From the IMG/VR virus record IMGVR_UViG_3300031519_000153, positions 1-29,031 of that record: DNA of 29,031 bases. The stretch is one strand, 5' to 3'. Of the stretch, positions 11,001-28,654 are shown piece by piece (the stretch's first letter is position 1; every line of letters starts with the position of its first letter). Source of the DNA: a virus. Taxonomy: Duplodnaviria > Caudoviricetes. Below the pieces are notes generated by a model. The model ran no database searches and had not been told where the DNA came from. It saw nothing but the letters and a program-made list of their open reading frames with translations. The position numbers and the translations under genes are program-made.

Positions 11001-11873
11001 AGCAGCAACAGACTGATCTTTAACGAGCAGGTTTTTGCCTAAGGACCAAGTAGTAACATCATCGATGTATAGGAAATTTACTGGTGGAATAGACAAAGTT
11101 GCAGAGACTGTTGTGTTGCCTTCGTCGAAAGTAGCACCCAAATCAGCAGTTGTTGCAGCTAATGCTTGTGGACGTACAACAAAACCAGTAACCAAATTAT
11201 CAACGTAACGCTTGTTGGTAGCATCAGATGGCAGAATCGGGTCTTCAATAACCTTAACTGTGTTCTCAACACGGATTAATTCAAATTCAAGATAACTTTT
11301 ATTAACAACATCTTTACCATCAATAGGGTCAGCAACTTGTATAATTCTTGCGTTGCTTACGTCTACAGAATTATTAGCCGCTGGCTGAAGTTTTACATTG
11401 CCTAAACTCGTGATAGTGTTGGTTTCTAGTACCAAGCCACCAGCATCAAGTTTAGTCAAACCTACGATCTCAGGTGTTGTTCCACCCAAAGTAAGCGCAG
11501 TGCTACCAAACGTTATGTTATCAGAAGATATTACATTATTGCTTGAGGAGAAGTTTACTGGATCGAAAGAATTGTTTCTGAACTGTGTAATGTGGCCAAA
11601 CTGATCTAAGTCAATATTTCCAGCAAAAGTTAGTCCAGCGTTATTTGAACTTATTTCAGTAGAAGTGTTGGCGTGGCTTATTACAAGATTTGCATTTTCT
11701 ATGTTAGTTTCAGATGTGACAATGATACCTGCACCAGCATCAATTTGGGCAACGTAATTTCCGACTGTATCAATGCCCAGAGTAATCGAATCTGGTACAA
11801 TAAGTGGTTTTTTCTCAGCGGCAGCTACGATCCTGATGTTGCTAGGTGCGCCGACCTTAACTTTAATACTCAC
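8004..11873 (-). CDS. Long tail fibre / baseplate-associated fibre protein (1289 aa)
   Basis: GTG start with GGAGGT SD. It has two copies of D(A/V)xxKxYVD...LVKDQ...NGSY...PG.(Y/F).FVTDG...W.QF.G.GT(F/Y).AG and two copies of LP.G...RP...GM.RFNTED..FEGY.G.AWAGL. It ends in IDGGTF. These motifs are typical of fibre proteins of large T4-like aquatic phages. Confidence 0.85.
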   Translation of the reverse strand: MSIKVKVGAPSNIRIVAAAEKKPLIVPDSITLGIDTVGNYVAQIDAGAGIIVTSETNIENANLVISHANTSTEISSNNAGLTFAGNIDLDQFGHITQFRNNSFDPVNFSSSNNVISSDNITFGSTALTLGGTTPEIVGLTKLDAGGLVLETNTITSLGNVKLQPAANNSVDVSNARIIQVADPIDGKDVVNKSYLEFELIRVENTVKVIEDPILPSDATNKRYVDNLVTGFVVRPQALAATTADLGATFDEGNTTVSATLSIPPVNFLYIDDVTTWSLGKNLLVKDQSVAAENGSYDLIQVGSANTAWVFQRSSFSTSAELPGSYEFVTDGTINGGSGWVSTVLDASSFNINTDPINWVQFQGEGTFTAGAGLSLNGTQFNLDTTVSLAQINPVSDIVTVSGTGAIKLPEGDSASRPTPTSGMIRFNTEDGQFEGYGGAAWAGLGGVIDVDQDTKVIAETAPGSDNDQLQFYTAGSLAAQFDADNTANFYGDVNINALASTLNPKTTGNINLGSSTKNFDKIFTAKLGADDGVVTIDTTGAMVLPKGTEAQRPAEQIGMLRFNTEDARFEGYDGTAWAGLAGSVIDLDRNTYIIAETSAGADNNDLDFYSAGIHRLQIDQDGNFNYGNNLSVLKIDYTTGNLTVNGKVTSDGNLYLDATGTINASNNTITDVANPVNPRDVVTLNYLDTQFSSKMIIVDNANTYPTSIDLLQNPTLKIGRGLEVQSIDAANNELEVGLDITGVQAAMYGTDGFTPRIRITEDGRIDFATEIPLELQANAIPNFTETSRDIIALMFVDGNANNEGIIAVNDDTNDVMNLKVRNFNIELSGDLAGVAEVTRASNTTIQAEITAQYVRYIYPDGVTSGLSIAQPNGASANVAIGLDYTHLDTVYAELAGATFEGNVFAPRYYDSDDNDYFLDPASETRLNTLRVGYGLTFSSIGFADGVGSQSTLYASGGKIGFLDNTFNYAAYSERSTGNWVVQNGDVRAERFVDADATTFFIHPGGSDSNIKALVVENNFRAGDVYIDTREITTGTGDLSINAFTNEVDFNANRLKNIADPVSIQDVASKGYVDSVAQGLRVIPAAIAATTVNIAGTYNHGAGTITIAATPILEIDGVSSWVVGDRILVKDQTASLQNGSYEFSTIGSGSTAWVLTRGEYFNETVEIPGAFQFVTDGTDNNGTGWVATVTDAETFVLGTDDVVWQQFSGAGTYSAGDAITLTGTQFSIVDGDITNAKLENSSFTVIDEFGASQVITLGTNLTFTGTDGVDVTVTAGQIAIAINEIDGGTF

Positions 11874-11876
11874 AAG

Positions 11877-12203
11877 TTATACCTCCGTTATAGTTGGAAT
11901 AACAATTGCTAGACCTTCAACTATTTTGGACATTTCACCACTAGATTTTCGCATCAGTACATCGTATTCATATTTGCCCGGTTTTAAAGTAGCAGTAACA
12001 TCGGCTTCTAAAACAAGAGTGATGTCGTTTTCATTTTTTTCTATTGTAAATTCGGCTGTTCTCTTGGCAGAGTACATTTTTCTAAGATCAGCATAAAAGC
12101 TGAACGTGCTGATTACAAGATCATCATCATCACCGTCGAAAAGTTCTAACGAGATGCGGAAATCAGTACCCTGATCTATGTAAATATTTGCTTTTGAACC
12201 CAT
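11877..12203 (-). CDS. Small virion structural protein, BppU-N-like Ig fold (108 aa)
   Basis: The pattern ANIYIDQGTDF...ITLVLEADVTATLKPGKYEYDVLM...KIVEG.A.V.P is common in T4-like phages. It sits directly after a late promoter. Confidence 0.75.
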   Translation of the reverse strand: MGSKANIYIDQGTDFRISLELFDGDDDDLVISTFSFYADLRKMYSAKRTAEFTIEKNENDITLVLEADVTATLKPGKYEYDVLMRKSSGEMSKIVEGLAIVIPTITEV

Positions 12204-12238
12204 TTTAAATCTCTTTTATGCTTAAGCTTGCTTTATTC

Positions 12239-12246
12239 TATTTATA
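12239..12246 (-). promoter_or_regulatory. T4-type late promoter TATAAATA
   Basis: Perfect match, intergenic, downstream of the terminator and 35 nt upstream of the ATG at 12203. Confidence 0.85.
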
Positions 12247-12271
12247 ATAAGAAAGCAGTTTGCAATGGATG

Positions 12272-12306
12272 AAAAAAATGGGGCAGTACGCATTTATACC
12301 ACCCCA
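12272..12306 (-). terminator. Rho-independent terminator after the collagen-like fibre gene
   Basis: Minus strand reads TGGGGTGGTA-TAAATGCG-TACTGCCCCA-TTTTTTT: a 10-bp stem with two G-U pairs followed by U7. Confidence 0.85.
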
Positions 12307-12332
12307 CTTATACTCATCAAAAATGCTCATAT

Positions 12333-12608
12333 TTAAGCGTGATTAGTTTCATCCACTTTGTCACTCAAGTCTTTGATAGCTTCAATCAGAAGACCAACCA
12401 ACGAACCGTAAGCAACACTTTTAATTTTGTCACTAGAGTCATCGGTTATTACTGCCTCTGGAATTACAGCTTCAACTTCTTGCGCAATAAGACCAATCTT
12501 TTTTGCATCAGGCGCAGATATTTTATTAAAGTAAACGCCTCTCATGCTCTTAACTTTTTCAAGCGCCGAACCAATAGTTTCAACATTCTCTTTCAGTCTA
12601 GCATCAGA
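12333..12608 (-). other. Peptidase S74 / intramolecular chaperone auto-cleavage domain
   Basis: Canonical S-D-x-R-L-K motif (Ser codon at 12606-12608), GLIAQEV and a terminal coiled coil. Implies a trimeric fibre. Confidence 0.9.
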
Positions 12609-15600
12609 GTTTGTTGTAACATCGCCCGTTGCTGTGAAATTACCAGTCGTATTGTCGAAAGTAAAGATGGCAGCGCCACTGCTTCTATTTTCTATGATTA
12701 TCGAAGTCGCGTCGGTTGTACTCACGTCAAATAGTAATGCACCAGTAGCACTTTCAAACCCTAGCTTAGCAGCCGCATTCAAACCAAATCCTATATGAAC
12801 ATCGCTTGGGAGTGCCAAGTCAGAAGTAAGACCAGTTATCGTTGTGACGTCAATCGTACCACCAACAGTAATGTTACCACCAAGAGCAATGTTTTCTAGG
12901 CTTAGTTCATCAGCAGAAGATGTGTAGAAGAAGTTTTGTTCGCCACCCGGATTTGGACCCAATGTAGCAAGCAATTGTCTTTGATCTGCACCAGCTTCGA
13001 AGAATGGGATGAACAATGCAGTGTCTTGCAATGTAGATGTGTGGACGTTCTGAAGGTTGCCAACGCCGCCTTCATTGCCCGGTCCCTGTACACCTTGCGT
13101 ACCTTGGAAACCGTAGTCACCTTGGAAGCCTTCTGTACCTTGGAAACCTTGAACACCACCACCAATAGCACCTTGGAAGCCCAAGTCACCTTGAACACCT
13201 TGAATGCCTTGCATACCTTGGACACCTTGTCCAGTAGTACCTTGTACGCCAGTTTCGCCCAAGTCACCCTGAATACCCTGTGTACCTTGCGCACCCCCAT
13301 CACCACTTCCACCGACTAAACCTTGGAAGCCCTGTGCGCCTTGGAAGCCACTAAAGCCCTGCAAACCTTCTCCACCAGTTCCACCTTCGAAACCTTGTAC
13401 ACCTTGGAAACCACCTGAACCTTGGAGACCTTCATCACCGATACCAGCAGCACCTTGGAAACCTTGAGTACCTTGATTACCAGCACCAGTTGAACCTTGG
13501 AAACCATTGTCACCTTGGAAACCTTGGAAGCCGTTAAAACCTTGAGCACCTTGATTGCCTTCACCAGCAATACCTTGGAAACCACCTGCACCTTGGAAAC
13601 CTTCAGCACCCTGAAAGCCTTGAAGACCTTGTGTACCTTGCAAACCAATACCAATAGGGCCGTCTGTACCTTGAATACCCTGTGTTGACTGCATACCCTG
13701 AATGCCTTGGAGACCGTCGTTACCTTGGATACCACTTGCACCAACGCCGTCGTTACCTTTGACGCCTTGAGTACCTTGTACACCTTGGAAACCGTCGCCA
13801 CCCTGAAGACCAAACGAACCTTGGATACCTTGCGCACCTTCGCCGCCCACTTCGCCTTCGCCACCAATAGTACCGTCTGCGCCTTGGAAACCAGTGTCAC
13901 CCTGTGGACCAGCCGAACCTTGAATACCTACGCCAAGTAAGCCTTGAACGCCTTGGTTGCCTTGGATACCTTGCGCACCAATCGAACCAAGTTGGCCCGA
14001 AATACCTTGGTTGCCTTGCATACCTTGGACGCCTTGAATACCCTGTCCACCAACTGGGCCAATATCACCTGTTCTTGCGAAAGTGATAACAACGTCTGTT
14101 GCATCAGCAAAAGTTCCAGCAATCGAACCTGATACATAAGAAACTTCAATTGCGAAGTAACCAGCAGATTCTGTTAAGCTATCAATTACATAAATTACAA
14201 AGTTTGCTGGCTCACCATTTTCGGAAACCTTGAGGTGACCTTTAATTGGGCTGGTTGAGTCGTCAATTGTTCTCAAGAAAGGTTGGATGTCTGTAAAGTT
14301 ATCGTCTCTGTCATCCATGAATAGGTAGTTGGCAGAAGACAAAGAAGCATTGTTAAACTTCAGAGTACCAACACCGGGGTCTGTTGTTGTAACATTTGTG
14401 CTGAATGTGTAATCGAACGTGATGCCACCAAAGCTACCCGTTTGACCTTGCAAACCACCAGTACCCTGAAAACCATCGGTTCCTTGAGTACCCTGTGGAC
14501 CAATCGGCCCGGGAAATCCTTGTACGCCATCATCACCCTGAATACCAGTTTGACCTTGTAGACCCGTTTGACCTTGTAGACCAAAACCTTCGTCACCTTG
14601 AAGACCCTGTAGACCCTGTAGACCTTGCAAACCTTGTAAGCCTTGCGTACCTTGCAAACCTTGGTCGCCAGTTACTGAGAAGGAAACAACGATATCTGTG
14701 TTATTTGTAAAATATGTAGCATTTGCATTGACAGATTTACCAAGATATGATACATCAAATGTATACGCATTGGAAGCTGCAAGCGAAGATGTAATACCGT
14801 ACAAAAGAAATTCTTGTGGGTTAAACACAGAAGTAATTTTAATATAAGCTTTAATTGTGCTTGAAGACAAATCGATAGTATTGAGGAAAGTCGATATATC
14901 GTTTGTAAATGTGTCTTCTTCATGCATACGCAACACTGTAGCTGCTGTAACATCAGCATTGTTTAGCTTAAGAATACCTGAGGCAGGAACAGATGCCGTT
15001 ACATCTGGGTTGTAATCGTATTCAAACGATGCACCACCGTATGATCCAGCAATACCTTGCGCACCTTGGAAACCTTCAGTACCTTGAATTGACTGTGGAC
15101 CTTGAACGCCTTGAACACCTTGGACGCCTTGGACGCCCTGTAATCCTTGAACCCCTTGGAATGCTTGTGGACCTTGAACGCCTTGAACGCCTTGGACGCC
15201 CTGTGTTCCTTGAATGCCAGTCGTTCCTTGATTTCCGCTAGTTCCCTGATAACCTTGAACACCTTGGACACCTTGATCGCCCTGAATTCCTTGGTTGCCT
15301 TGGACGCCCTGAATACCAGTGCCGCCTTGCAGACCTTGGACACCTTGGACGGACTGAGTACCCTGAATTCCCTGAATCCCTTGTACGCCTTGATTTCCCT
15401 GAAAACCAGTGTCGCCTTGGACGCCCTGAATTCCTTGCGTACCTTGAATTGACTGTGGACCTTGTGTACCCTGTGTACCTTGAAATCCTAGATCGCCCTG
15501 AATGCCAGTCGTTCCTTGAATTCCTTGCGTACCTTGTGGGCCAAGATCACTTACGTTAATTACGCCACCCATTATAGAGTGATTTGAACATTGGTAATAT

Positions 15601-16568
15601 AATGTATTTGGTGCGTCGTATGGCAACTGTACCATTACCGTACCAGTTTCAGCACCATTATTAGTCACGCCATCATTATATTGATCGCCTGTACCTGTTG
15701 TCTGTGCTGTTTTAATATAAAACGGGTGGCCTGAGACATTAACATTAAAGTTATATGAGAAACCACGAATGAGATGAAGGATTGGTTGAGCTACGCCGTC
15801 AACAATGTAGTTGGTAGCACCGTTATTGGTTACCGTATAGTCTCGCGTACCTTCTGTGCCTTGAACGCCTTGAAATCCAGTATCGCCTTGAATGCCTTGG
15901 ACACCCTGAAAAGCTTGTGGGCCTTGGACACCTTGGTTGCCTTGCGTACCTTGAACGCCTTGAACGCCCTGAAATGCTTGTGGACCTTGAACGCCCTGTG
16001 TACCTTGATTTCCCTGAATGCCTTGGACACCCTGAATACCGATTGTACCCTGAAAGCCTTGCGTACCTTGAAAACCACGGAAACCACGGCTACCCTGAAT
16101 ACCTTCTTCGCCAATAATTCCTTGGACGCCTTGAGTACCCTGTGTACCGATAAAGCCTTGGACACCACGAAATGAACCAACATTAATCCATGTTGCGCCA
16201 TCGTAAACCCAAAGCTCATCATCTGTTTCGTCTATTGCAGCTTGACCAGTAGTTGCTGAAGGAAATGCTGTGTTAAGAGTTGCTTGTGGATCACCACCAG
16301 CATCGACGTCAGGAACAGAACCGATGACATCAAAGCCCGGCCCATAAGTACCTTGTAAACCTTGTAAGCCAGAATCGCCCTGAAGACCTGTTGTACCCTG
16401 AATACCAGCGCCAACAGCATTCCATGCTATCCCTGTGGAAACATAAATTAAGCCATCTGAGCCAAAAGCTACAGCACCTTTATACGGTGCTGGGTCTAGT
16501 TGGATCGGTACTGTTTGAGGCGTACCTTGCCCAATAATTCTGCTTCCGCTTATAGATTTAAAAGCCAT
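12333..16568 (-). CDS. Collagen-like (Gly-X-Gln) fibre with cupredoxin-like domain and C-terminal intramolecular chaperone (peptidase S74) (1411 aa)
   Basis: Five G-X-Q triplet blocks are interrupted by globular inserts, including GHPF...[12 protein letters not shown]. The C-terminus reads SDARLKENV...[15 protein letters not shown]...[17 protein letters not shown]. Confidence 0.9.
13060..16410 (-). repeat. Gly-X-Gln collagen-like triplet blocks (9-bp periodicity)
   Basis: Hundreds of residues of (G[VIFTLA]Q)n, with the plus-strand ccttg/ccctg motif recurring every 9 bp. Confidence 0.95.
15545..15846 (-). other. Cupredoxin-like domain with complete type-1 copper ligand set
   Basis: His (GHPF, 15726-15728) lies about 46 residues before C-x2-H-x2-M (CSNHSIM; Cys at 15588-15590, Met at 15570-15572). 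Confidence 0.7.
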
Positions 16569-16990
16569 TATACATCATCCTCTTCGGATTGACCAAGGGT
16601 GAACGATAATGTAGCATCTACTGCTAGGTTCGTGTCGCATTTAAGTTCTAGTAAATCACCAGATTTAAAAAATTGACCGTTAAGAGGCAAAGGAACTGTG
16701 TCATAAGCTGGAATTTGTAGATTTCTGATAATCCAAAATTCAGCGTTGACATCTTCCCTGTGAGTTCTTACATCAACTGCGACAGTAGTAGCCGTGAAGT
16801 TACATAGGACAAGAGGAGAAATAACTTCTCCTACGCCCGGTTCGACTTGAGTTGAACCCCCAAAGACTAGCTCTGGGACTTCATAGTTTGGTACTTCAAT
16901 CATCGTCTGCCAGTTAGTCGTTAATGTAAAAGATTTAGCGACTGGTTTAGCATCAGGTGCTTGTGATGTTACGATTGTTGTAATTGCCAT
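16568..16990 (-). CDS. Small beta-sandwich virion/fibre-associated protein (140 aa)
   Basis: The pattern [14 protein letters not shown]...[15 protein letters not shown]...FKSGDLLEL...VDATLSF matches small phage structural proteins that follow large fibres. It is coupled by TAATG overlaps on both sides. Confidence 0.7.
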
Positions 16991-19900
16991 TAGAGTGATG
17001 CCCTACTGTTGGAAGCCCTTCGAGCGAGTTTTCTGACCGATGATGTAAATGGACGACCTTCGATGCGACCTGTTCTACCATTGATTTTCAAACCTCTTGC
17101 GAAGTACTGGTTATTCAATTCGTCTGATCCAGACCATCTAATTCTACCACCACCCTCTGAGAGGACTGAAGCGGTAGCACCAATAGCAGCACCAATGTTT
17201 CTAAAGTTCAAAGGCAGAGCGTTTCTGTTAACACCTGCCGATGCGCCGTTAAACTGGTGAGCAATTGATTCAACGAGCGAACCAAAGACCAAGAAGTCTG
17301 GTCTTAGAACACTTTCTATTAGTACGTTATCAATCAATTCTGTCACCATGTTCCTGTGTGCTTGATCTGGAGCGATATTGTTATTTATATAAGTTTTCAT
17401 CTGTTCCCAAGCCTTATAGAAAGAATAAAGCAAATCAGAGTTGTTATCACCAACAGTGATCCAGTTTGTGCCATTCCAATGGTATATAACACCAACATAA
17501 CGGTTTACGTTATTATTAGTTGGAACAATGTAACAATCCCAAACCTTCATATCAGTCAAAGCATTTCTTGCAGTTATTGTTGCAACTGTACCCTTAAATC
17601 TTAGCTTGCGCCAATCAGCAAAGGATGCTGGTGGGTTGAATACTGGGAAAACGTGCTGCTGGTTGATGTTAAACAACGCGGCTGCAAATGATCTCATTGC
17701 TCTGTCTGTACCTTCGATTACATTAGCTGGATCGTTGAATGAGAAGTCATTTGCAAGAATTTGCAATAGGTTCCCACCGTCACGATAAGTCTTGGGTAGA
17801 TCGATAAACTTGTACTCAGAAGTAATAAATCTTTGTACTTCGCTTTGGAGTTTGCGTCTGTTGTTAGCAAGAATGTCTTTTGCAAAGCTGAATTCTTTAC
17901 TTGCACCGACAACATAGTTAGGCTCAGTCAACGGACCAAGACTTAGTGCTGAGTTGTTGAATAGTGCGTTATAGAATATCAAACCAAGATCATATACTTG
18001 ATCTGCTTCTACTTGCGTACCAACATTATTTCTGATAAACTGACCTTCCAGTGTACCCATAACTGCTGACTTAGCAAGCTCACCTAGTTTGCGATATGCT
18101 CCTGCTGTTGCTACTCTTGTATCTTCTGGAATTCTTAGTTCGTTGTTCCAGAAGTAGAAGTCTGCATTCCATCTGGAAGCTGAGTTACCACCATAGTTAA
18201 GGTCGTAGCTGAAGGCATCCAAGATGTAGTTTCCATCTCTGTAGCATTTGGCTTTGTTGTAATCAAGAACGCTGAATTCTTTGTTAATCCAAGTTGTGAT
18301 ATCATCAGCAAGATTATCAAGGTTTTCATCAATCGCGTTTCCAGCCCAAATCAAGTCTGCTGATACCCAAGAAGTATCTGGCTCAACCAAATCAGGCACT
18401 GCGTCTAGGCTATTGCGACGGATTGCCTCTTCAATAATTCTTACAAGATTAGCGACTTCTGCGCCTTCAACTGCTGTTGCTGGGTTACCAGATACATCTT
18501 GACCAACGGCAGTTTCTTGAACTACTTTCTGAACCAATTGTGCCATCTCATAGAAGAAATCAGCAGTTTGGGTTCTTTGGTCATATGGAAGGACACTGTT
18601 AGCGTTATCAAAATACATATTTGCATTCAATAGAGTACCGTAATTTGTTTGGTACTGGACATCGTGAGATAGTGCATCAATAATGATACCTACATCTCTA
18701 CGACATTTGTGCTCAGGATAGCTAAGACCATTGTATGTTTTGGAAATGAAGTTTACCATGGCTGTAGCCAATACAGCTTTATTATCAGCAATAGTATCAA
18801 TGCTATCTAGAATTGTTTCGCCAGCCATCCACTGCTTGAATGGTTCAATTCTGATTGGTAGTGTTGTTGGGTTATTTTCAACAACAACATTTGCAATTGT
18901 GATCGCCAAGTCTCTTGCTTCTCTGGCGATATATCTTCTTGCGACCAAACCAGTATTGTCTTGCTTGAGTGTAGCACCGATAACAGTTTGTACTGCGTTT
19001 TTAGCAACACTTACGAAAGTGTGTACTTTCTGTGCGCCTTTACCAGCAGAGCCTGCATTTACAGTAATAGTTGTTGCAGTTGTTGCAATTACTTTTACTG
19101 GCGAACCATTCAATGGATCAGATGCTCTTGGATGTGAGATATTTACGGCTGCACCGCTTGCGTCTAGGCAAGAGAATGTGAAGGCATTTGTTGGGAACAT
19201 AACGTGGTTTCCAACTTTTAGGTCATGCCCACCAGATAGAGTGATAACCATATCGCCATTCAATGCATCGTATGTTGCTGTGTTTGGTGTGTAAGTTCTG
19301 CCAATTCTCAATGGAACCTCTGTTTGGCGGATTACATCGTGGACAACTTCACTAAGGCGCATGAACGCTCTTTTCGAAGCTGCTCTTTGTGAGAGTGGCA
19401 GTACATTTACACCGTTAGCAAAGTGAATTTGTGCATTGTTCCATGTAGCAGCATTGCCGCCATATTGAACATCATGGCTGATACCGTCAACAATATAACC
19501 AACATCACGGCGACATTTCTCTCTGCTGTACTCAAGATAGCTGAACTTAGTTTTGAGGTAAGTTGTGATGCTTGAGGCCAAAGATGTCTTTTCAGTAGCA
19601 ATCAAAGCTGCTTCTGTTTCGTATGAGTAGTTAGTACCAACACCACTTGCTTCAACAATCGCTGGGATGTTGATTAGAGAGTTGTCAGTGATAAGGTCGC
19701 CAACGATAGCCCACAAAGTTTGTGCAGCGGTTGCTGTAGTTGCGTCCACAGTACCAAACACGGCGCTCTGCGATAGGCCATTACCAGTTGTAGGGGTAAC
19801 AGGCTGCTTTAGAAGCAATGCTCTTGTAACCGTCGCTAGATGGGTCCACAAGGCTACTGTAGGCGCTCTTTGAGCAAGTGTCAAGGAAGACAAACCATTT

Positions 19901-22900
19901 TCGAAGTATAGCTTTGCTATATCTCTCATTGCTGTGTTTGTGCCATGTCTTATGTCATAAGTTACCGCGTCAACCATGTAGCCTGTGTCTCTTTGACATT
20001 TAGCTTCAGTGTAAACCAAGGATGAGTAATTAACATTTACCCATGCCGTAGCTTCTGCTTGCAAGAACGCCCTGTTGGCAATCATGCCGTCCGAACCGTT
20101 TTTGGTGAACGTGGACACTTGTGCTGTGCCGTAATTGTAGTTAGTTCCGTCAGCCACGAAGTCATTTGTCATGACGTCGATGATATTAGTGAAGGAACCC
20201 GTTGCTCTAGTGAGTGCTACACCGCTTAGCTTAGCTTCGATGTCTCTTTGTATATAGCGAATTCCTTCTATCGTTTCAGCAAGCTGTTCCTCAATTACTT
20301 CTTGAGCGCCAGCCATACCATTACGATATGCCTTACCAGCATACTTACCGTTGTATGTGGAACCTGTTTGAACATCTCTTCTTACAGCATCAATGATAAA
20401 CCCTGCATCTCTTGCACATTTATCTTCATCGAATGTGTAGAATTCATCTTCGACAAATGCGACGATTTCATCTTGAATGAATGTTTTGTTTCTTTGAAGG
20501 GTTTCTCTTGCAAAGGTTCTGCTTGGTGACATAATAGGATTGCCAGTAACTGTTGGCAATTCTTTGCGCTTCTTGAGAACATCATCTTTAGAGCCAGTCA
20601 GACCTTCGATTTCAGGTGTATCGTCAACTAGGTCTGCAATAACAGTTGCTAGTGCTTTACCTTGTGCTGCGATAGTTGCAGAGCCAGCAGTACCCGACAA
20701 GTCTTGGGATGTGATGCTACCTTTGATTTCTTTGATTGCATCAGCATCCGCGCTGACGAATGTATGAGCACCACTATAAGTTCCTGCTGTACCAACCTGC
20801 AACGTAATAGTTGTAGATGTTACAGAAGTGATAGGAACTGCTTTGTTGTAGAATGGGTGGTGTGCCTCTGGGCTTGCATGGTTTTGTGCGCCAGAACCGT
20901 TATCACAAGAGAATGTGATGCTTTCTGGGGCAAACCAGATATGGTCGGCATCTGTTAATGTATGCGTACCAATGGTTGCAACAAAGACGCCAGTGTCTGG
21001 GTCATATGTAGCATCGGTTGGAGTGAACAAAGCACCAAAGATTGGAAGTACCTGAGTTTCTTCGATAACATCTTCGACAACATCAGCAAGGTGTAGGTAG
21101 GCCAATCTTGTTGGCATACGCTGATCGAATGGTAGGATGTTAAGTGCAGCATCCCAATAGTAGCCAGCCGCATTGATTGTACCAGCATTACCACCATATT
21201 TGACATCTTCTGTGATCGCGTCAACAACGTATCCAATATCACGGTAGCACATCGCTGTGTCGTAACCAAGACCATTATATGTTTCGCGAATGTAGTCAGT
21301 GATTTCTTGTTGGTACTTAGGAATGCTCCCAGAGATAAGCTGTGTGTCAGCATCAATAGCAGCGTCGTAGTTTGCCACTGCTGTTGTGTATGCTGGCTCA
21401 GTGATCGCTGGCAATGAAGTGATATCGTTGTTACGAACAACGTCTGCAACAACTTCCCATAGGCTTTGTACGGTTGCCGAAACTGCTGGAACAGATGCTT
21501 TTCTGAATGAATTTGCTGTGGCGCTCACAAAAGTGTGTGGCTTGACGTAGCCATTTGCGTCACCAACATTCATAGAAATGGTAGTAGCTGTTACAGACAA
21601 GATTTCGATTGGCTTGTTGAACCAAGGATCAGAAGCTCTTGGGTGTGAGATATTAATTGGTGTTGGATCAACATCAGATGTTGCACATGAGAAAGTAATT
21701 CCGTTTGTGTCAACAATGATGTAGTCGCCAACTTCCAATCTGTGCGTACCGATTGTTACGGAGAACGCACCACCTACTGGATCGTATGAACCATCTGTTG
21801 GTGTATATGTAGGTGCAAGTGTTGCCGTTTGAACTGCATCAGCTAGAGCACTCACGAATGTGTGTACTTTATTGACACCAGCAGCACCAACTTGCATTGT
21901 AATAGTGGTCGCATCAATCGCGTCAATTGTGATCGGCTTATTAAAGAACGGATCACTTGGACGTGGATGTGAAATATTCACTGGTGCGCCAAACTCATCT
22001 GGGCAAGAGAATGTAATACCGTTTTCAACAATAGAAATTCTATCACCAACTGTATAGGTGTGAGTTCCGATTGTGATAACCATTACGCCTGTTACTGAGT
22101 CGTATGTTGCATCCGTTGGGGTGAATGTTGTATTGTCTGCTCTTACTTGAGTTGTAACTCCTTGTAGTGGAGTAACAACTTCATTTCTTACGATTTGGCC
22201 AGCAATGTTAGCAGCAAATTCAAATGTCTCTGCTGTTGGTGTTCTTTGGTCTTCTGGAAGGATACCAACAGCAGCATTAAAGTAAAGTCTTGAATTCAAG
22301 ACAGTCGCTGCGTTAGAACCGTGCTGTACATCCCATGAGATTGTGTCTGCGAAGTAACCAATGTCACGCTCACATTTTGCTGCATCATATGTAAGAGTAG
22401 GATAGTTTGCAGCTATGAATGCTGTTACCTCATCTTGGATGAATGCTTTGTTAGCTTGAATTGTAGACTTGGCTTCATAAGCTTCATCAGTGACATATGT
22501 TTTACCAAATACCAGAGTATCAGCCGCTGCTTTGTCATTCTGCATGATATCGATGATTTCATCAAAAGCAGCATTTGAGCGAGAGATTGCAGTTGCGTTA
22601 GTGATGTCGCCAGCAATCTCGCCTTTTAGCCAAGTAATTGCGCCGACTGTTTCTGTTAATTCATTAGCAATAACAGATTCTGTAGAAGCATTACCTGAGC
22701 GATATGAAAGTCCTGTATTGACTGTGTTTACATTTGAGCCTGTGAGTACATCTCTTGCAACTGCATTCAAGATAAAGCCTGTATCGCGTTGACATAGTGC
22801 TTTATTGTAGACAAAGTAGTTGTTTCTGATCCAAGCATCAACATCATCTTGGATGAATTTCTTATTGGCTTGAAGTTGACGTGCTGCATATTCGCCGTCT

Positions 22901-25900
22901 TGAGTTGCTGTAACTTTAGCAAGACAATCAGCATCCGCGCTGACGAATGTGTGTGCTCCAACATAACCATTGCCGTCGCCTACACTGATAGAGAATGTGT
23001 TTACATCAGAAACTGTTACTGTTAATGGAAGATCATAAGCAGGATCGCCAATTCTAGGATAAGATGCAGATGCAACCCCACCATTATCACAAGAGAATGT
23101 GAAGCTGTTAGGTTTCATCTGAACGTGGTTGCCAGTTACTAGGCCGTGATTTGTCGCTGTGACAACAAATGCACCGTTGGAGGGGTCATATGTTGCACTT
23201 GTAACATCAATAAGTTCTGGCTTCTTGGCTGGGTCTGTCCAGTAAATTGCGTTAGTGTCGATACAATCAACATCAGCACTTACGAAAGTGTGTGCCGCTG
23301 CATATCCACCAGCATTACCAACGTTAACCGTGATAGTTGAACCAGTTGTACCTACAATTCTTACAGGTGATTTGTAAGCAGGCTCACCAAGTCTTGGGTG
23401 GCTGATTTCAACAGTCGTACCAGCTTCGGTATTTGCGCAAGACAATGTAATTGACTTTGGTGCGATTGTGATCCACTTACCTTCTGGAAGGCTGTGCGAA
23501 CCAATTGTCAATGTCATCTCACCAGATACAGGGTTATACGCAACATCAGTTGGTGTAACTTTACCTGAATAGACACCTACTGTTTTGATGCCATTTGGCA
23601 ATGCACTTACGAATGTGTGTACGCCAAGGTAACCACCACCGTCGCCTACATTAACTGTAATAGTTGTAGCAGAAACAGAAGAGATTGTCAATGCAGTTTT
23701 GTAAGCTGGATCAGTTACTCTTGGGTATGATGCTTCACCTACGCCGCCATTGTCACAAGAGAATGTAATGCCACCCTCTTCGATCATGATCTGTTCGCCA
23801 ACTGTAAGCTCATGAGCGCCAATGGTAATTTCTGTGATACCAGTTGCTGGGTCATATGTGGCTGTTGATGGAGTGAATGTGCCGTTAAGAACTGCAACTT
23901 CTTGGACCGAACCCGCTTTCGCTCTTACGAAAGTGTGTACACCAGAGTAACCGCCAGCATTGCCAACATTAAGAGTAATGGTGTCTGCTGTTTTTGCAGT
24001 AATTGTCTGTGGTACTCTGTAAGGACCGTCTGTTACTCTTGGGTGGCTGATGAAGATCGTTTCGCCAGTCACACTGTTAGCACAAGAGAATGTAATACCT
24101 TCTTTTGCAAATAGAACTTCATCACCAACATCAAAGAAGTGATCTTCAATTGTCAAGGTGAAGACACCAGATACTGGATCATAAGATGCATCTGAAGGTG
24201 TGTATTGCTTGCCCTCAGTTTGCATGATGCCCATGAATTCATCAAAAGCACCTTCGATACGACCCACCGTAGCAAGATCAGTTACCAAGTCGGTAGTTGC
24301 AACCTTGAGGTGTTCGAATGCACCAAGTGTCTGTGGAAGCTGTTCTGTTAGAAGGACTTCTGATGTCTTGCCACGATATGCAATGCCAGACTGGATTGCC
24401 ATAAAGTTTGAACCTGTAAGCAAGTCGCGTGAGACTGCTGGTAGGATATATTCGTTAACATCACGTTGGCACTTCTCACTATCGTACATAAAGAAGTTGC
24501 TTTCAGCCCAAGTCATCATCGAGTCTTGGATGTATGATTTGTTGATTTGTAGTTGCTGACGGGCATAAATCTTTTCGGATACGATGTTTGCGTCATTACT
24601 AAATGTAATTGCTTGACCTACAACAGAAACAGCGTTACGTGTTGCACTCACGAATGTGTGTACGCCAGTATAAGGAGTTTTGCCAGTATTAACAGTGATG
24701 GTATCTGTTGTTGCAAAAGTAATAGGAACTGCTGTTCTGTAAGATGGGTCAGACGCTCTTGGGTGAGATAGCTGGATTACGTTGCCATCTGTATCACAAG
24801 AGAATGTGAATGCTTCATCCGCAAAGGTAACCAATCTACCAATCGACAAGCCATGACCAGCCATAGTGATTACAAAATCACCTGTTGCTGGATTATAGGA
24901 TGCGTTTGTTGGTGTGAACTTGTCGCCGTTGTTACCAAGAATATCAACGATCTGATTAAATTTATCATAAGCTCTTGTTGCGCCCAGCGCAGTGTTGGCT
25001 TGGATAATTTTGTCAGTTTCTGCTCTTAGTCTTTCGTATGCAGCAACAGTTTCGTTTCTTTGGTTTCCAATCACAGAAGAGGCTTGCTTGAAGTAATAGG
25101 CATTACCTGCTGTCACTGAGTTGTAGTTTGTATCAAGCATCATGTCATTTTTGACTGCTGGCAAGATATATTCTTGGATGTCACGAGCACACTTGGCGCT
25201 ATCGTAAGCAAAGAAATCTTCGTTATTGTCGATCCAGTCAACCATACCCTGAATGATAAGGTCTTTGTTGTCTTGGATTAGGTGACGTGCATCTTCTTTC
25301 GATGTGGATACGTCATCAGTATAGGAAGTCCAAACGATTGGGCTTGCGTTCTCTTCGCCATTATTAAGGATGTTGATTGTTTCATCCAAGGAAGTAGAGA
25401 TGCGGTTTGTAACATCAGAGGAAGCGTTTGAGAAAATATCAAGAATGCTTTCTTTAAGATGCTCAATAGAACCCACTGTTTCTGTAAGCTGCTCTTGTTT
25501 AACAACGTAAGAGATCGGGCTGCTATATGTGATACCGCTTAGACGGCCCCAATAGTTGCCACCAGTCGCTACGTCTTGTGCTGTTAGGTCTACAAGAATG
25601 CCTGTATCGCGGAAACACTTGTCTGCATTGTAACCTTGATAACCTAAACCGGGACCGCCTTCAAACCCTGTAGTTGTGTTGGCTGTTAGGAAATCGACCA
25701 TATTATCAAGAATATCATCTTTTGCCGCCATGATTGAGTCAGCGAATGTAGTGTTGGCGAAGAACAAGTTGTCATCACCTTCTGCTGGTCTAATAATAGT
25801 TGTGAAGCCTTTTGCTCTCATTGAGATGTCACCAAACTGAGTACCTGAGTTGTTCAGGGTCATTTGGCCACCATTCAAGGCATAGAAAGCTTGGCGTGTA

Positions 25901-28086
25901 AAGATCGAAAGTGAACCAATACCGTTAACACCAGCACCGTTTTTAGCAACATAACCTGTACCGTTTTGGGTACGTGGCGTGAAACCAAAACAAAGAACAT
26001 ATGTGTATAGCGAGTCAGTGTCAAGAACTGCACGGTCAGCTAGAAGACAACCGCCCCCACGACCAACTGCTCTGTTTGGGAAGTCATCAATACCGATGCT
26101 CTCAACTGTACCTGTGCCACCGCGTTGGGCGTAAAGCATGTCGCCAATTTCTACGTTGCCCTTAAGGTTACGGATATAAATCTGGCGATTTGAGTTGATG
26201 TCGGCAATGTATGAGATGAAACCAGTTGCGCCAGATGAGAATGTTACTTCATCATCAATTTCAAATAGCGTTTGAGCACTATGCCCAACCGCAAGATAGA
26301 ATTCTTGGCCAAGGTCAGAGATGCCACCCTTGGAGTTGAATGGGTTAAGCGCAGGTTCAACGTCAAGACGGTTAAAGTTTGAAAGCTGCGAACTATCTCG
26401 AATGTATGGCGAACGTCTTAGCAAAGCGCCCGGACGGTAAGCAATAGCAAAACCACCTTCAGGATAATCAAAGTTATCAACCTCAAAGTTCATATAACCG
26501 AAACCTTGGACGTAGCAACCAGAACCAACTAGAATACCGTTTGTTCTTTCGTAGCCCGGAGATTTTCTAATGACAGTGGCATACTGACCTGCTGTCGAAG
26601 TCAAAGAACAATCATCTGGAAGTGCAATAGGCTCTTCAACGTAATAAGCGCCTGGGCCTACGGAGATGTGTACTGCATGGTCGATATCATTTCTGTCGTA
26701 CTGACCACCAGCTTTTTCTAGTGCTATCTCAGCGGCTCTCTTAATTGATCTCACAGGCTGTAGGATAGTACCGGGGTATCTGTCATCGCCATCAGCAGCA
26801 ACGTGGACTTTAAGAGCCTTTTCTGTGTTCTTGGAAACTTCATTGTAAAGCTGACGATAAGTCATCTTTTCAGTTTCGCCAGTTTTAACATTCTTAAGAG
26901 CGAAATAGCTGTCTTCGTCCAACTTAGGTTCAAAGACTTTAGTAAGCTCCATATCGAAGTCTACAAGATCAGAGCCTTGAATTGTTGTGTTGGCGATTGT
27001 CGAGTCTGTGATTGCACCGCCGTCAAAGGTAGACTTTACTTGGTCTAGGCCTGAAGCAGAGGAACTTGTGATCGTAAGGTTTTCTGCAACAACGTTGGAC
27101 ATGCTACCTTGGAACGATGTATTGGCAATAACTGAGTCTTGAATAGTACCTTGAACTGTGGTGTTGGTAAAGATGTTATTATTACCAGTACCATCAGAGA
27201 AATCTGAGTTCAAAAGGGCCATGTTGTTTGCAGAACTGTCATTGATAACAGAACTTGTCATGATGATGTTGTTTGCAGTCGTATCAATAATGGATGAGTT
27301 ACTGATAAGAGTATCCCAAATTTGACCATTCGAGAAACGTGAGTTTGTAATGTCAACGTTATCAAGATCAGTATCACGAATGTTTGAATTAGAAACAAAC
27401 ACGTCAAAGATATTTGTATTACCAGAGATAACTGAATCGATGATCGAACCGTTAGAGAATTCTGTAGTGTTGATCGCTGAGTTCGACATTAGAGCGTCTT
27501 CAAGGACGATCTCATCAATAGTGATGTTTGTAAGAATTAGGTTGTTAGCTGTGCCACCTTCAATCGCAACATTTGCGAAAGATGAATTGTCAATCTGCGA
27601 ATTGGTGAAGATGTTGTTGTTGCCAGTACCATCGGAGAAATCAGAACTAGTAATGGTCAGGTTGTTTGCAGAGCTATTCACGATTGTGGAATCGTCGATA
27701 GTCGAATCCGTGAGAACTACATTGTTACCAGTTCCATCATTAAACTCTGATTCAGTAATTACTGAAGAGGTCATGGTAACGTTATTTGCAGTCGCTTCTT
27801 CGATAGTGGAATCGTTCAGCGTAGATGCATTAATTACGCCATTGCTGAAAGTAGATGAGTTTATTTCTACGCTGTTTAGCGTAGAGTTGGTCATCGTAAC
27901 ATTGGAAATAGTACCACCAGTGATGGTAATTCTATTGAAGATTTCCAATTGTAGCGCTTGGACAAGTTCTTTACGAGTGATATTTTTAGTACCATCATCG
28001 CCTTGTATCAAGTTAACGATAACAAACAAATCTTCTGATCTGGTGTTAATGCCTGTAATCGGACCTAGTTCTGAAATCAACGACAT
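16990..28086 (-). CDS. Giant virion structural protein (3698 aa): Ser/Asn/Thr solenoid, split beta-helix scaffold, 12 phycobiliprotein-like helical repeats and 9 beta repeats
   Basis: Single 11.1-kb ORF behind a late promoter. It has a beta-helix start (VHVAADGDD..PGT...PVRSIKRA; RSPYIRDSS), 11 C-x-R-D repeats plus one TYRD, nine Y(D/N)..G...H...TFSC...PR...HTFV repeats, and a C-terminal GGGRIRWSGSDE...KINGRTGRIEGRPF. Confidence 0.9.
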   Translation of the reverse strand: MSLISELGPITGINTRSEDLFVIVNLIQGDDGTKNITRKELVQALQLEIFNRITITGGTISNVTMTNSTLNSVEINSSTFSNGVINASTLNDSTIEEATANNVTMTSSVITESEFNDGTGNNVVLTDSTIDDSTIVNSSANNLTITSSDFSDGTGNNNIFTNSQIDNSSFANVAIEGGTANNLILTNITIDEIVLEDALMSNSAINTTEFSNGSIIDSVISGNTNIFDVFVSNSNIRDTDLDNVDITNSRFSNGQIWDTLISNSSIIDTTANNIIMTSSVINDSSANNMALLNSDFSDGTGNNNIFTNTTVQGTIQDSVIANTSFQGSMSNVVAENLTITSSSASGLDQVKSTFDGGAITDSTIANTTIQGSDLVDFDMELTKVFEPKLDEDSYFALKNVKTGETEKMTYRQLYNEVSKNTEKALKVHVAADGDDRYPGTILQPVRSIKRAAEIALEKAGGQYDRNDIDHAVHISVGPGAYYVEEPIALPDDCSLTSTAGQYATVIRKSPGYERTNGILVGSGCYVQGFGYMNFEVDNFDYPEGGFAIAYRPGALLRRSPYIRDSSQLSNFNRLDVEPALNPFNSKGGISDLGQEFYLAVGHSAQTLFEIDDEVTFSSGATGFISYIADINSNRQIYIRNLKGNVEIGDMLYAQRGGTGTVESIGIDDFPNRAVGRGGGCLLADRAVLDTDSLYTYVLCFGFTPRTQNGTGYVAKNGAGVNGIGSLSIFTRQAFYALNGGQMTLNNSGTQFGDISMRAKGFTTIIRPAEGDDNLFFANTTFADSIMAAKDDILDNMVDFLTANTTTGFEGGPGLGYQGYNADKCFRDTGILVDLTAQDVATGGNYWGRLSGITYSSPISYVVKQEQLTETVGSIEHLKESILDIFSNASSDVTNRISTSLDETINILNNGEENASPIVWTSYTDDVSTSKEDARHLIQDNKDLIIQGMVDWIDNNEDFFAYDSAKCARDIQEYILPAVKNDMMLDTNYNSVTAGNAYYFKQASSVIGNQRNETVAAYERLRAETDKIIQANTALGATRAYDKFNQIVDILGNNGDKFTPTNASYNPATGDFVITMAGHGLSIGRLVTFADEAFTFSCDTDGNVIQLSHPRASDPSYRTAVPITFATTDTITVNTGKTPYTGVHTFVSATRNAVSVVGQAITFSNDANIVSEKIYARQQLQINKSYIQDSMMTWAESNFFMYDSEKCQRDVNEYILPAVSRDLLTGSNFMAIQSGIAYRGKTSEVLLTEQLPQTLGAFEHLKVATTDLVTDLATVGRIEGAFDEFMGIMQTEGKQYTPSDASYDPVSGVFTLTIEDHFFDVGDEVLFAKEGITFSCANSVTGETIFISHPRVTDGPYRVPQTITAKTADTITLNVGNAGGYSGVHTFVRAKAGSVQEVAVLNGTFTPSTATYDPATGITEITIGAHELTVGEQIMIEEGGITFSCDNGGVGEASYPRVTDPAYKTALTISSVSATTITVNVGDGGGYLGVHTFVSALPNGIKTVGVYSGKVTPTDVAYNPVSGEMTLTIGSHSLPEGKWITIAPKSITLSCANTEAGTTVEISHPRLGEPAYKSPVRIVGTTGSTITVNVGNAGGYAAAHTFVSADVDCIDTNAIYWTDPAKKPELIDVTSATYDPSNGAFVVTATNHGLVTGNHVQMKPNSFTFSCDNGGVASASYPRIGDPAYDLPLTVTVSDVNTFSISVGDGNGYVGAHTFVSADADCLAKVTATQDGEYAARQLQANKKFIQDDVDAWIRNNYFVYNKALCQRDTGFILNAVARDVLTGSNVNTVNTGLSYRSGNASTESVIANELTETVGAITWLKGEIAGDITNATAISRSNAAFDEIIDIMQNDKAAADTLVFGKTYVTDEAYEAKSTIQANKAFIQDEVTAFIAANYPTLTYDAAKCERDIGYFADTISWDVQHGSNAATVLNSRLYFNAAVGILPEDQRTPTAETFEFAANIAGQIVRNEVVTPLQGVTTQVRADNTTFTPTDATYDSVTGVMVITIGTHTYTVGDRISIVENGITFSCPDEFGAPVNISHPRPSDPFFNKPITIDAIDATTITMQVGAAGVNKVHTFVSALADAVQTATLAPTYTPTDGSYDPVGGAFSVTIGTHRLEVGDYIIVDTNGITFSCATSDVDPTPINISHPRASDPWFNKPIEILSVTATTISMNVGDANGYVKPHTFVSATANSFRKASVPAVSATVQSLWEVVADVVRNNDITSLPAITEPAYTTAVANYDAAIDADTQLISGSIPKYQQEITDYIRETYNGLGYDTAMCYRDIGYVVDAITEDVKYGGNAGTINAAGYYWDAALNILPFDQRMPTRLAYLHLADVVEDVIEETQVLPIFGALFTPTDATYDPDTGVFVATIGTHTLTDADHIWFAPESITFSCDNGSGAQNHASPEAHHPFYNKAVPITSVTSTTITLQVGTAGTYSGAHTFVSADADAIKEIKGSITSQDLSGTAGSATIAAQGKALATVIADLVDDTPEIEGLTGSKDDVLKKRKELPTVTGNPIMSPSRTFARETLQRNKTFIQDEIVAFVEDEFYTFDEDKCARDAGFIIDAVRRDVQTGSTYNGKYAGKAYRNGMAGAQEVIEEQLAETIEGIRYIQRDIEAKLSGVALTRATGSFTNIIDVMTNDFVADGTNYNYGTAQVSTFTKNGSDGMIANRAFLQAEATAWVNVNYSSLVYTEAKCQRDTGYMVDAVTYDIRHGTNTAMRDIAKLYFENGLSSLTLAQRAPTVALWTHLATVTRALLLKQPVTPTTGNGLSQSAVFGTVDATTATAAQTLWAIVGDLITDNSLINIPAIVEASGVGTNYSYETEAALIATEKTSLASSITTYLKTKFSYLEYSREKCRRDVGYIVDGISHDVQYGGNAATWNNAQIHFANGVNVLPLSQRAASKRAFMRLSEVVHDVIRQTEVPLRIGRTYTPNTATYDALNGDMVITLSGGHDLKVGNHVMFPTNAFTFSCLDASGAAVNISHPRASDPLNGSPVKVIATTATTITVNAGSAGKGAQKVHTFVSVAKNAVQTVIGATLKQDNTGLVARRYIAREARDLAITIANVVVENNPTTLPIRIEPFKQWMAGETILDSIDTIADNKAVLATAMVNFISKTYNGLSYPEHKCRRDVGIIIDALSHDVQYQTNYGTLLNANMYFDNANSVLPYDQRTQTADFFYEMAQLVQKVVQETAVGQDVSGNPATAVEGAEVANLVRIIEEAIRRNSLDAVPDLVEPDTSWVSADLIWAGNAIDENLDNLADDITTWINKEFSVLDYNKAKCYRDGNYILDAFSYDLNYGGNSASRWNADFYFWNNELRIPEDTRVATAGAYRKLGELAKSAVMGTLEGQFIRNNVGTQVEADQVYDLGLIFYNALFNNSALSLGPLTEPNYVVGASKEFSFAKDILANNRRKLQSEVQRFITSEYKFIDLPKTYRDGGNLLQILANDFSFNDPANVIEGTDRAMRSFAAALFNINQQHVFPVFNPPASFADWRKLRFKGTVATITARNALTDMKVWDCYIVPTNNNVNRYVGVIYHWNGTNWITVGDNNSDLLYSFYKAWEQMKTYINNNIAPDQAHRNMVTELIDNVLIESVLRPDFLVFGSLVESIAHQFNGASAGVNRNALPLNFRNIGAAIGATASVLSEGGGRIRWSGSDELNNQYFARGLKINGRTGRIEGRPFTSSVRKLARRASNSRASL
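17310..25750 (-). repeat. Twelve ~130-160-aa helical repeats with phycobiliprotein-like C-x-R-D motif
   Basis: Cys codons at 25615, 25189, 24469, 22792, 22372, 21247, 20416, 19996, 19513, 18703 and 18244. The twelfth copy has Thr at 17788. Confidence 0.85.
18990..24921 (-). repeat. Nine ~100-aa beta-rich repeats interspersed in the helical array
   Basis: Consensus TP..A(T/S)YDP..G....TIG.H....G......ITFSC.....SHPR..DP......I...T.TTIT..VG......HTFVSA. Approximate starts: 24921, 24207, 23880, 23562, 23215, 22130, 21810, 21030 and 19296. Confidence 0.9.
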
Positions 28087-28115
28087 GCTTGCCTACCCTT
28101 ATTACGTTTTTCTTT

Positions 28116-28123
28116 TATTTATA
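28116..28123 (-). promoter_or_regulatory. T4-type late promoter TATAAATA
   Basis: Perfect match, 29 nt upstream of the ATG of the 3698-aa gene. Confidence 0.85.
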
Positions 28124-28124
28124 A

Positions 28125-28152
28125 TAATCTGTGGACGTGTATCGTCAGATTA
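28125..28152 (-). terminator. Possible hairpin/weak terminator after the 164-aa gene
   Basis: Bulged stem TAATCTGACG-ATACA-CGTC(CAC)AGATTA followed by TTAT. The U-tract is poor. Confidence 0.35.
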
Positions 28153-28159
28153 CAAGTTT

Positions 28160-28654
28160 TTATTCAACGAGTTCCCATAACTCTATGTCATCAACGGCAT
28201 CGTAATATCTTCTTTCGATGTTACAACCCTTAAGGATATCAGCAACAGATGTTTCAACTCGTCCTTCTGCGTCCACAACTTGATCCCAATCAGCATGGCT
28301 GTCGCAGGTCATACCTTCCTTCATATATCTAAGGTTCGATCCAAGAACATAATCCCTACATTCTTCGATAGTGCCTGTAAATTCTGTGATTCCCCTAACA
28401 ACTCTACAATCTTCAGTTGCGTTAAGGTCGCCGCCCATCATTACAATATCAAAAATATCCATTGCTTTGTAAGCTCTGGCCACCCAACTTTCCTTTTGGA
28501 AATCGGGAAGAGTTTTGTAATAATCGCTTGCCTCTAGTATGGCAATCATATCGCGCCATGTTTCTGGTTTGTCATCACCACCATTCATCCATTCCTCAAC
28601 AGCTTCAGTGCAGAAAAATATATGTCCAGTCATGGCTATCTTGTGGGGATTCAT
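28160..28654 (-). CDS. Hypothetical acidic protein (164 aa)
   Basis: Fills the gap between its neighbours on the coding strand. The ATG overlaps the upstream stop (TAATG) with GGAGG just upstream. No recognised family. Confidence 0.75.
   Translation of the reverse strand: MNPHKIAMTGHIFFCTEAVEEWMNGGDDKPETWRDMIAILEASDYYKTLPDFQKESWVARAYKAMDIFDIVMMGGDLNATEDCRVVRGITEFTGTIEECRDYVLGSNLRYMKEGMTCDSHADWDQVVDAEGRVETSVADILKGCNIERRYYDAVDDIELWELVE

Follow-up and report, generated by a model that had tools for sequence, protein, structure and literature searches.

Three late genes in the stretch of phage DNA analysed here (the window, 29,031 nt; our genome G000 consists of this 29-kb contig alone) may encode a single multi-part tail or baseplate fibre, in which a giant proximal protein carries eleven probably bilin-binding domains and a copper-type cassette is optional, a reading that we regard as evenly poised between right and wrong. 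The giant would be a tailspike-like proximal protein into which a run of domains, 12 of them globin-like and nine of the His/Cys beta type, has been inserted, and we think it fairly probable that its C-terminal tip would join the N-terminal knob of a collagen-like fibre via a 140-aa protein, leaving the S74 end of the fibre as the distal tip.

The genes were found as open reading frames of the sizes and in the order given by the first-pass annotation, all on the minus strand: a giant gene of 3698 aa (P0001, 16990..28086 (-)), called as a virion structural or fibre protein, a 140-aa gene (P0002, 16568..16990 (-)), which belongs to an unnamed viral family and is our candidate connector, and a collagen-like (Gly-X-Gln) fibre gene of 1411 aa (P0003, 12333..16568 (-)). 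The annotated TAATG stop/start overlaps are present at both junctions, at 16988..16992 (-) between the giant and 140-aa genes and at 16566..16570 (-) between the 140-aa and fibre genes, and an exact TAATG was found at these junctions in 148/226 and 133/223 loci, respectively. The T4-type late promoter claimed for the giant gene was found as well, TATAAATA standing at 28116..28123 (-), 30 nt before the ATG. Copies of TATAAATA number four in the window against 1.37 expected (2/100 shuffles reach four), three of them directly upstream of a gene, and the motif stands 5' of the giant gene in 8/9 loci holding the gene start, two of these being the same contig. An internal TATAAATA at 17382..17389 (-), ~400 nt before the 140-aa gene, is a possible second late promoter that may raise the output of the last two genes; it recurs at the matching place in 63/126 distinct relatives and in 33/33 relatives with the TYINN peptide, which are not independent of one another, against 0.035 expected from codon use.

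At the other end the unit closes with a terminator-like hairpin followed by a T run (12276..12309 (-)), whose 14 pairs make it the longest hairpin in 11800-29031. A terminator had been placed at 12272-12306; the hairpin is real and its position was slightly off, the stem running from 12309 to 12276 on the minus strand. Terminator-like sites are not enriched over the window (16 vs 13.6 by chance), and a hairpin with a T run, scored by a heuristic, was found in 41/72 distinct stretches downstream of the relatives' units. The late promoter of the next unit lies at 12239..12246 (-) and precedes that unit's first gene, a 108-aa LtfC-like gene (window 11877-12203 (-)); large fibre genes of 1289, 768 and >1852 aa make up the unit. 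Nine marine RNA-library runs from two studies matched the stretch, six of them with at least half of its words, and both gene junctions are spanned by a 5070-nt RNA-library contig, which need not equal a single transcript. Among the RNA contigs listed, ends at 12331-12351, on the fibre side of the hairpin, occurred in two studies, which is a weak hint; RNA contig ends at 17400 were considered as a transcript start and rejected, as they fit a graph branch. Promoter, overlaps and closing terminator were thus all seen, as expected of a late transcription unit of coupled genes, and the sequence speaks for a late unit that is conserved and made up of genes for virion structure.

Gene order was surveyed in 227 loci, a redundant set from which the window's own record was left out. 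The giant gene lies upstream of the 140-aa gene in 226/227 loci and the fibre gene downstream in 223/227, the remaining loci ending at a contig edge. The triad is also kept in 4/4 loci of a distant clade at 39-45% identity, and a homologous triad was found in the distant genome G061, and so the synteny check proposed for the three genes came out in favour of their association: they co-occur in all relatives where the order is visible, and in distant phages besides. In G024 the giant gene comes after the baseplate genes gp53, gp5, gp25 and gp6. In one distant locus (L605:4479-4573) the giant gene is broken into two frames, either by an assembly error or in reality.

The relatives' contigs carry T4 gp13-15, 17, 18, 20, 21, 23, 44 and 45 together with baseplate genes, and the window probably derives from an uncultured marine T4-like jumbo phage that is not a cyanophage. 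The NCBIfam cut-offs are passed in the relatives by a 5-aminolevulinate synthase and by an FdxA ferredoxin of proteobacterial type, and no photosynthesis gene was found among 333 ORFs scanned from the relatives' fragments. From these genes of the relatives we infer a proteobacterial, probably alphaproteobacterial, host.

The proposal that the 140-aa protein connects the other two within one appendage is plausible on the grounds of gene order, the overlaps and a near-invariant giant tip. The C-terminal ~100 residues of the giant protein (16993..17301 (-)) are kept where the whole protein is 39-45% identical and form a candidate docking end; this tip and the N-terminal knob of the fibre are the most conserved parts of their proteins. 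In phage T4 the long tail fibre is laid out as gp34-gp35-gp36-gp37, with a large proximal protein, a small connector and a distal fibre. The gene order found here is similar, and the last 108 fibre residues match the PHROG 'long tail fiber distal subunit', but no family match ties the giant or the 140-aa protein to gp34 or gp35 and the distal part is collagen-like, so that the likeness is one of analogy only. Searches of Pfam, PHROG, NCBIfam and PDB sequences gave no match for the 140-aa protein, and thus no sign of homology to the gp35 hinge. It has 575 homologues and is itself on record on a 220,918-nt contig, and look-alikes of one homologue (P0010) in the Atlas are unnamed viral clusters, one of them automatically named a virion structural protein. 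Modelling the 140-aa protein in complex with giant residues 3596-3698 (three copies) yielded no answer (score 0.00), which speaks neither way.

The three proteins could instead be co-expressed yet separate parts of the virion, namely a spike on the baseplate, a small cap and a collagen fibre independent of both. Phage late neighbours are often coupled without binding each other, the overlaps counted above are not universal, the internal late promoter could let the last two genes be expressed on their own, and in G059 the 140-aa homologue does not adjoin the repeat proteins. We nevertheless hold this arrangement to be doubtful, given that the gene order does not vary within the group and is seen again in G061, that in the homologue P0171 a Cys-less repeat of the terminal type is fused directly to the front of the 140-aa domain, and that conservation peaks at the very ends that would meet in a single appendage.

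The giant protein matches PHROGs 701, 5342, 18802 and 4527 (virion structural, tail fibre) with E values of 1e-152 to 6e-64. Towards its N-terminus it has a pentapeptide-like repeat region (residues ~50-380, 26947..27939 (-); Pfam Pentapeptide_4, E 1.7e-6, below the cut-off), followed by what we take, from the sequence pattern, to be a parallel beta-helix (tailspike-like) body at residues ~424-775 (25762..26817 (-)), completed by the C-terminal ~100 residues. Between these lie 12 repeats with a predicted phycobiliprotein-like globin fold (17737..25755 (-)), of which 11 carry a CxRD motif (Cys 824, 966, 1206, 1765, 1905, 2280, 2557, 2697, 2858, 3128 and 3281) and the 12th carries TYRD. Eleven such motifs, against 0.07 expected, bear out the array as annotated. 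The 11 paralogous repeats are ~36% identical around the site and all place Cys at the bilin-attachment position. Among distinct repeats found by profile, 804/842 keep CxRD, in sequences that are kin and not independent; those without it are almost all the twelfth repeat. Arg and Asp are kept even in this Cys-less repeat and may therefore be structural.

Comparison with known proteins pointed to phycobiliproteins throughout, at modest strength. The profile of the repeat (from an alignment of 55 rows selected on CxRD) gave as its top PDB matches mostly phycocyanin alpha chains, Cys aligned on Cys, with weak E values of 0.15-1.1. The model of one repeat (pLDDT 85.7) retrieved in Foldseek, among the matches listed within ranks 1-20, only phycobiliproteins or smURFP (best E 0.099, probability 1.0). 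VIA-align placed it on the ApcE bilin domain with Z 9.4, rmsd 2.1 and 86 aligned residues, and seven of the first 10 rows were phycobiliproteins, with a stressosome globin tying at Z 10.1; these Z values lie below the ~13 advised for helical folds. The structural match covers only model residues 36-131, the first 35 residues remaining unaligned. The Pfam Phycobilisome family (PF00502) scored at best 12.9 bits against a cut-off of 22.2, in 1/12 repeats, a single repeat had no match among PDB sequences, and none of the six hits of the repeat profile was a short protein of its own bearing a Pfam label. The core predicted by the model is thus phycobiliprotein-like, and the helical repeat would act in the manner of a CXRD bilin-binding globin outside PF00502. 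Phycobiliproteins (CpcA, ApcA/D, the ApcE bilin domain and smURFP) share with it the helical globin-like core and a CXRD aligned Cys to Cys, at 14-26% identity. They differ in that here 12 repeats sit within one chain of a phage structural protein, the first helices of the modelled repeat do not superimpose, neither alpha/beta pairing nor linkers nor a lyase were found, and the chromophore is putative.

Interleaved with the helical repeats are nine beta-rich repeats (18982..24939 (-)), which by alignment share an invariant His, a Cys (FSC/LSC) and a further His (HTFV) and constitute a possible third kind of metal site; like the internal TATAAATA, they are absent from the first-pass description. 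A 1234-residue piece holding both repeat types has matches in 282 records of phages that were cultured or deposited, almost without exception cyanophages. The same helical and His/Cys beta repeats occur in giant structural proteins of T4-like cyanophages (PHROG 701, 5342 and 4527; the S-WAM2 tail protein and P-SSM4 gp7), and the beta repeats in cyanophage gp7-like proteins, but for the 140-aa protein S-WAM2 yielded no homologue and P-SSM4 a doubtful one at most. Homologous repeats are carried by S-PM2 too. CxRD is kept in 11/13 repeats of S-WAM2, where a cpeT lyase gene (L081:7100-7624) lies 1.3 kb 5' of a 4759-aa tail protein with six CxRD repeats. The repeats of P-SSM4 gp7 are Cys-less, and two nearby structural genes of that phage have cupredoxin-type motifs.

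Could these cysteines be loaded? CXRD globins outside the cyanobacterial antennae are already represented by BBAG-1 and BBAG-3, which according to the excerpted text of PMC10151467 bind bilins without lyases, their holoproteins being photoinert or weakly fluorescent. The BBAGs described there are separate bacterial proteins in a bilin gene cluster with HO and FDBR genes, whereas the phage repeats are parts of a virion protein and lie far from hemO-pcyX. We consider it somewhat better than an even chance that, by analogy with BBAG-1/3, the CxRD cysteines would take up bilin without a lyase, supplied by the phage alaS-hemO-pcyX genes of colinear relatives.

The genetic evidence for such a supply comes from relatives. 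A search that does recover Mosig's enzyme found a bilin reductase (FDBR) in 0/39, 0/5, 0/3 and 0/4 operon-bearing contigs of the group, all of them fragments that are 9-64% complete; heme oxygenase was found in 0/5 and CpeT in 0/39 operon-bearing contigs, likewise fragments. The operon-bearing genome G041 encodes AlaS, a 5-aminolevulinate synthase (L419:10178-11383, beside nrdB), and neither hemO nor pcyX lies in the examined flanks of the closest alaS loci. A hemO-pcyX pair is present in G075 and G078, at a site that falls in a gap left uncovered by G040, G041 and G042; the two are colinear with those three, most of the core proteins being 70-89% identical. More broadly, 68/77 related pcyX loci have hemO. 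G024, which is nearer to the window, lacks the pair next to the lipase gene, its position in G075 and G078. The distant G061 carries the repeats, alaS and hemO-pcyX on one contig, with ~60 kb between the triad and hemO-pcyX. Since colinear relatives encode alaS, hemO and pcyX, bilin attachment is plausible.

The correspondence between repeats and bilin genes is partial: Mosig has hemO-pcyA/X and no repeat, and P-SSM4 has pcyA and one weak Cys-less repeat, and therefore not every phage bilin gene can be accounted for by the repeats. Mosig-type pcyX contigs are short and gave no link to the operon, five further pcyX contigs have no repeat in their assembled part, and a gp23 scan returned mostly distant, short contigs, among them two near-complete ones without repeats and without FDBR.

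The alternative for the array itself is that the helical repeats are pigment-free structural spacers of globin ancestry, their cysteines serving for disulfides or for metal ligation with the nearby beta repeats. The retention of Arg and Asp without Cys, the nine Cys-bearing beta repeats in the same chain, the Cys-less versions in P-SSM4 gp7 and the lack of an FDBR gene on the group's operon-bearing contigs would all sit well with spacers. We rate them improbable, as the Cys is kept exactly at the bilin-attachment position in 11 paralogues and in cyanophage copies too, is kept in two repeats transplanted to 140-aa homologues that have no beta repeats, and is accompanied in colinear relatives by the full alaS-hemO-pcyX route.

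The third gene encodes a protein with 18 Gly-X-Y tracts that matches Pfam Collagen (E 1e-74) and PHROG tail fibre families, and it ends in an S74 intramolecular chaperone (12336..12608 (-); Pfam Peptidase_S74, 54.2 bits against a cut-off of 22), which marks the fibre tip; by its sequence it qualifies as an S74-chaperoned collagen-like tail fibre. Residues 242-343 (15540..15845 (-)) form a predicted cupredoxin domain, and the type-1 insert annotated in the fibre is upheld as a predicted fold in which all four type-1 ligands are present (His281 with Cys327-x2-His330-x2-Met333) and the copper is putative. The domain model (pLDDT 92.2) matched AcoP, rusticyanin and plastocyanin in Foldseek (E 1.6e-4 to 5e-4) and aligned in VIA with the cupredoxin domain of Cu nitrite reductase at Z 9.9, rmsd 2.0 and 87 residues. 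Pfam Copper-bind (PF00127) gave no match, PF25489 alone appearing at E 0.0029, below its cut-off, and the cupredoxin sequence alone gave chance matches only. The insert shares the fold and the His...Cys-x2-His-x2-Met set with amicyanin, plastocyanin, rusticyanin and AcoP, but in contrast to these single-domain proteins it sits between collagen tracts, has neither signal peptide nor redox partner, and is optional and mobile.

Its optional character emerged from 141 complete fibres with S74 (six closed ORFs without S74 were dropped). The cupredoxin is in 60 of these and absent in 81; by distinct type, 23/74 have it and 51/74 do not. Where present, it lies at ~residue 241-251, 648-695 or 832, and the window's own insert is at 241 while that of its sister rows is near 695. 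In a quick IQ-TREE of 72 rows (71/74 fibre types and the window), its distribution needs seven changes (gains or losses), at least five of them forced, and one clade of 31 rows is wholly without it. In the distant clade (39-45% identity) 3/4 fibres have the cupredoxin, the fourth locus being cut at the insert; its recurrence there shows that its presence in that clade's fibre is not random and that the fibre is a recurring host. The G061 triad lacks a cupredoxin, and in G040 and G041 cupredoxins are found in two other structural genes; these two cupredoxin-bearing genes are adjacent (L414:11414-15541 and L423:11069-15196, G041/G040), and a YHYH protein gene adjoins them.

Distant homologues of the 140-aa protein (65 representatives, 12 inspected closely) offered a further view of these modules, several having inserts in a central loop after ~residue 78. 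P0133 and P0152 bear two CxRD repeats in that loop, with beta repeats absent, P0131 bears a full-ligand cupredoxin in the same loop, and five more homologues carry other inserted domains. As the 140-aa homologues bear either module in one loop, both are interchangeable surface cassettes, and the 140-aa protein itself is suggested to be an exposed virion protein. P0131, P0133, P0152 and P0171 are small natural constructs suited to bench tests.

These distributions bear directly on the functional link drawn in the first-pass annotation, namely that the bilin array and the copper centre form one light- or redox-responsive appendage, in which, for example, an excited bilin might pass electrons to copper and so gate adsorption. 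Both sites are intact within one coupled unit in the window, 77/77 inserts found by profile keep the four ligands (the profile having been built from motif-selected rows), the pairing recurs in the distant clade, and some insert-free fibres belong to the genomes, G040 and G041, whose cupredoxins lie in other structural genes. Moreover, in PMC6628666, light-dependent adsorption of cyanophages is described as unexplained, with fibres possibly involved. Yet the patchy distribution of the insert, which is missing from 51/74 distinct fibres, from an entire 31-row clade and from the G061 triad, and which shifts by 400-600 residues along the collagen rod, argues against an obligate bilin-copper coupling; the same article states that phages of heterotrophs had not shown diel traits of this kind, and a proteobacterial host is what the genes of the relatives suggest. 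Throughout the group the array is retained, whereas the cupredoxin comes and goes and changes place; an independent distribution of the two had been named in advance as grounds for abandoning the link, and so the link does not survive on its own terms. We thus consider the coupled device very improbable indeed. The blue-copper domain is better described as an optional, mobile cassette and no working partner of the bilin-site array.

Cassettes that come and go as accessory host-range domains do, and that are sited on surface fibres, could also serve as bait: attachment would be aided by offering tetrapyrrole or copper to proteins of the host surface or its uptake systems, and cassette swaps would alter the host range. 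A covalently buried bilin or type-1 Cu would be poorly exposed for such a purpose, and receptor binding is usually the task of the S74-folded tip, which together make bait a decidedly improbable role. Returning to a pigmented fibre with optional copper, we propose, as the weakest step of the mechanism and one that is itself rather unlikely, that the bound pigments and metals would play a passive part, soaking up light and oxidants at the surface of the particle, with no switch or electron wire; this passive sink is favoured over a switch because BBAG holoproteins are photoinert or weakly fluorescent.

Taken together, the optional nature of the copper-type domain in relatives makes a coupled light-and-copper device unlikely, and leaves a particle that may be pigmented. 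A wider claim, to which we give somewhat less than even weight, is that phages of this group synthesize bilin themselves (alaS, hemO and pcyX) and load it onto their own fibre, with up to 11 covalent pigments per chain, on a virion that infects a non-cyanobacterial host and is assembled from exchangeable pigment, copper and His/Cys metal cassettes. What bilin genes do in phages is termed 'a mystery' in PMC3037559 and, where the phages infect alphaproteobacteria, 'still enigmatic' in PMC11480375. If the claim is true, the virus particle would be pigmented and phage bilin genes would gain a phage-encoded target. Given a virion protein whose attachment sites are intact, one cloned 130-residue repeat is enough to put the bilin-gene question to the test, and effort can be redirected from a coupled bilin-copper device to natural pairs with and without the cupredoxin (e.g. 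L004 and L007), which isolate its role. A literature search, which covered broad result sets in part, subscription journals sparsely and main texts rather than supplements, returned no published account of phycobiliprotein-like or cupredoxin domains in virion proteins; new here are the test of the bilin-copper link, the finding that both modules enter one loop, and the hemO-pcyX evidence from colinear genomes.

Further gene content was observed in the same set of phages. L418:1436-7473 (G041) and L516:11049-19290 (G061) encode curli-type csgF/csgG, a FecR protein and a CHASE2 adenylate/guanylate cyclase, and L090:9198-14345 (G023) and L083:13629-19918 (G024) hold gene clusters for radical SAM, P450, halogenase-like, desaturase and hydroxylase proteins.
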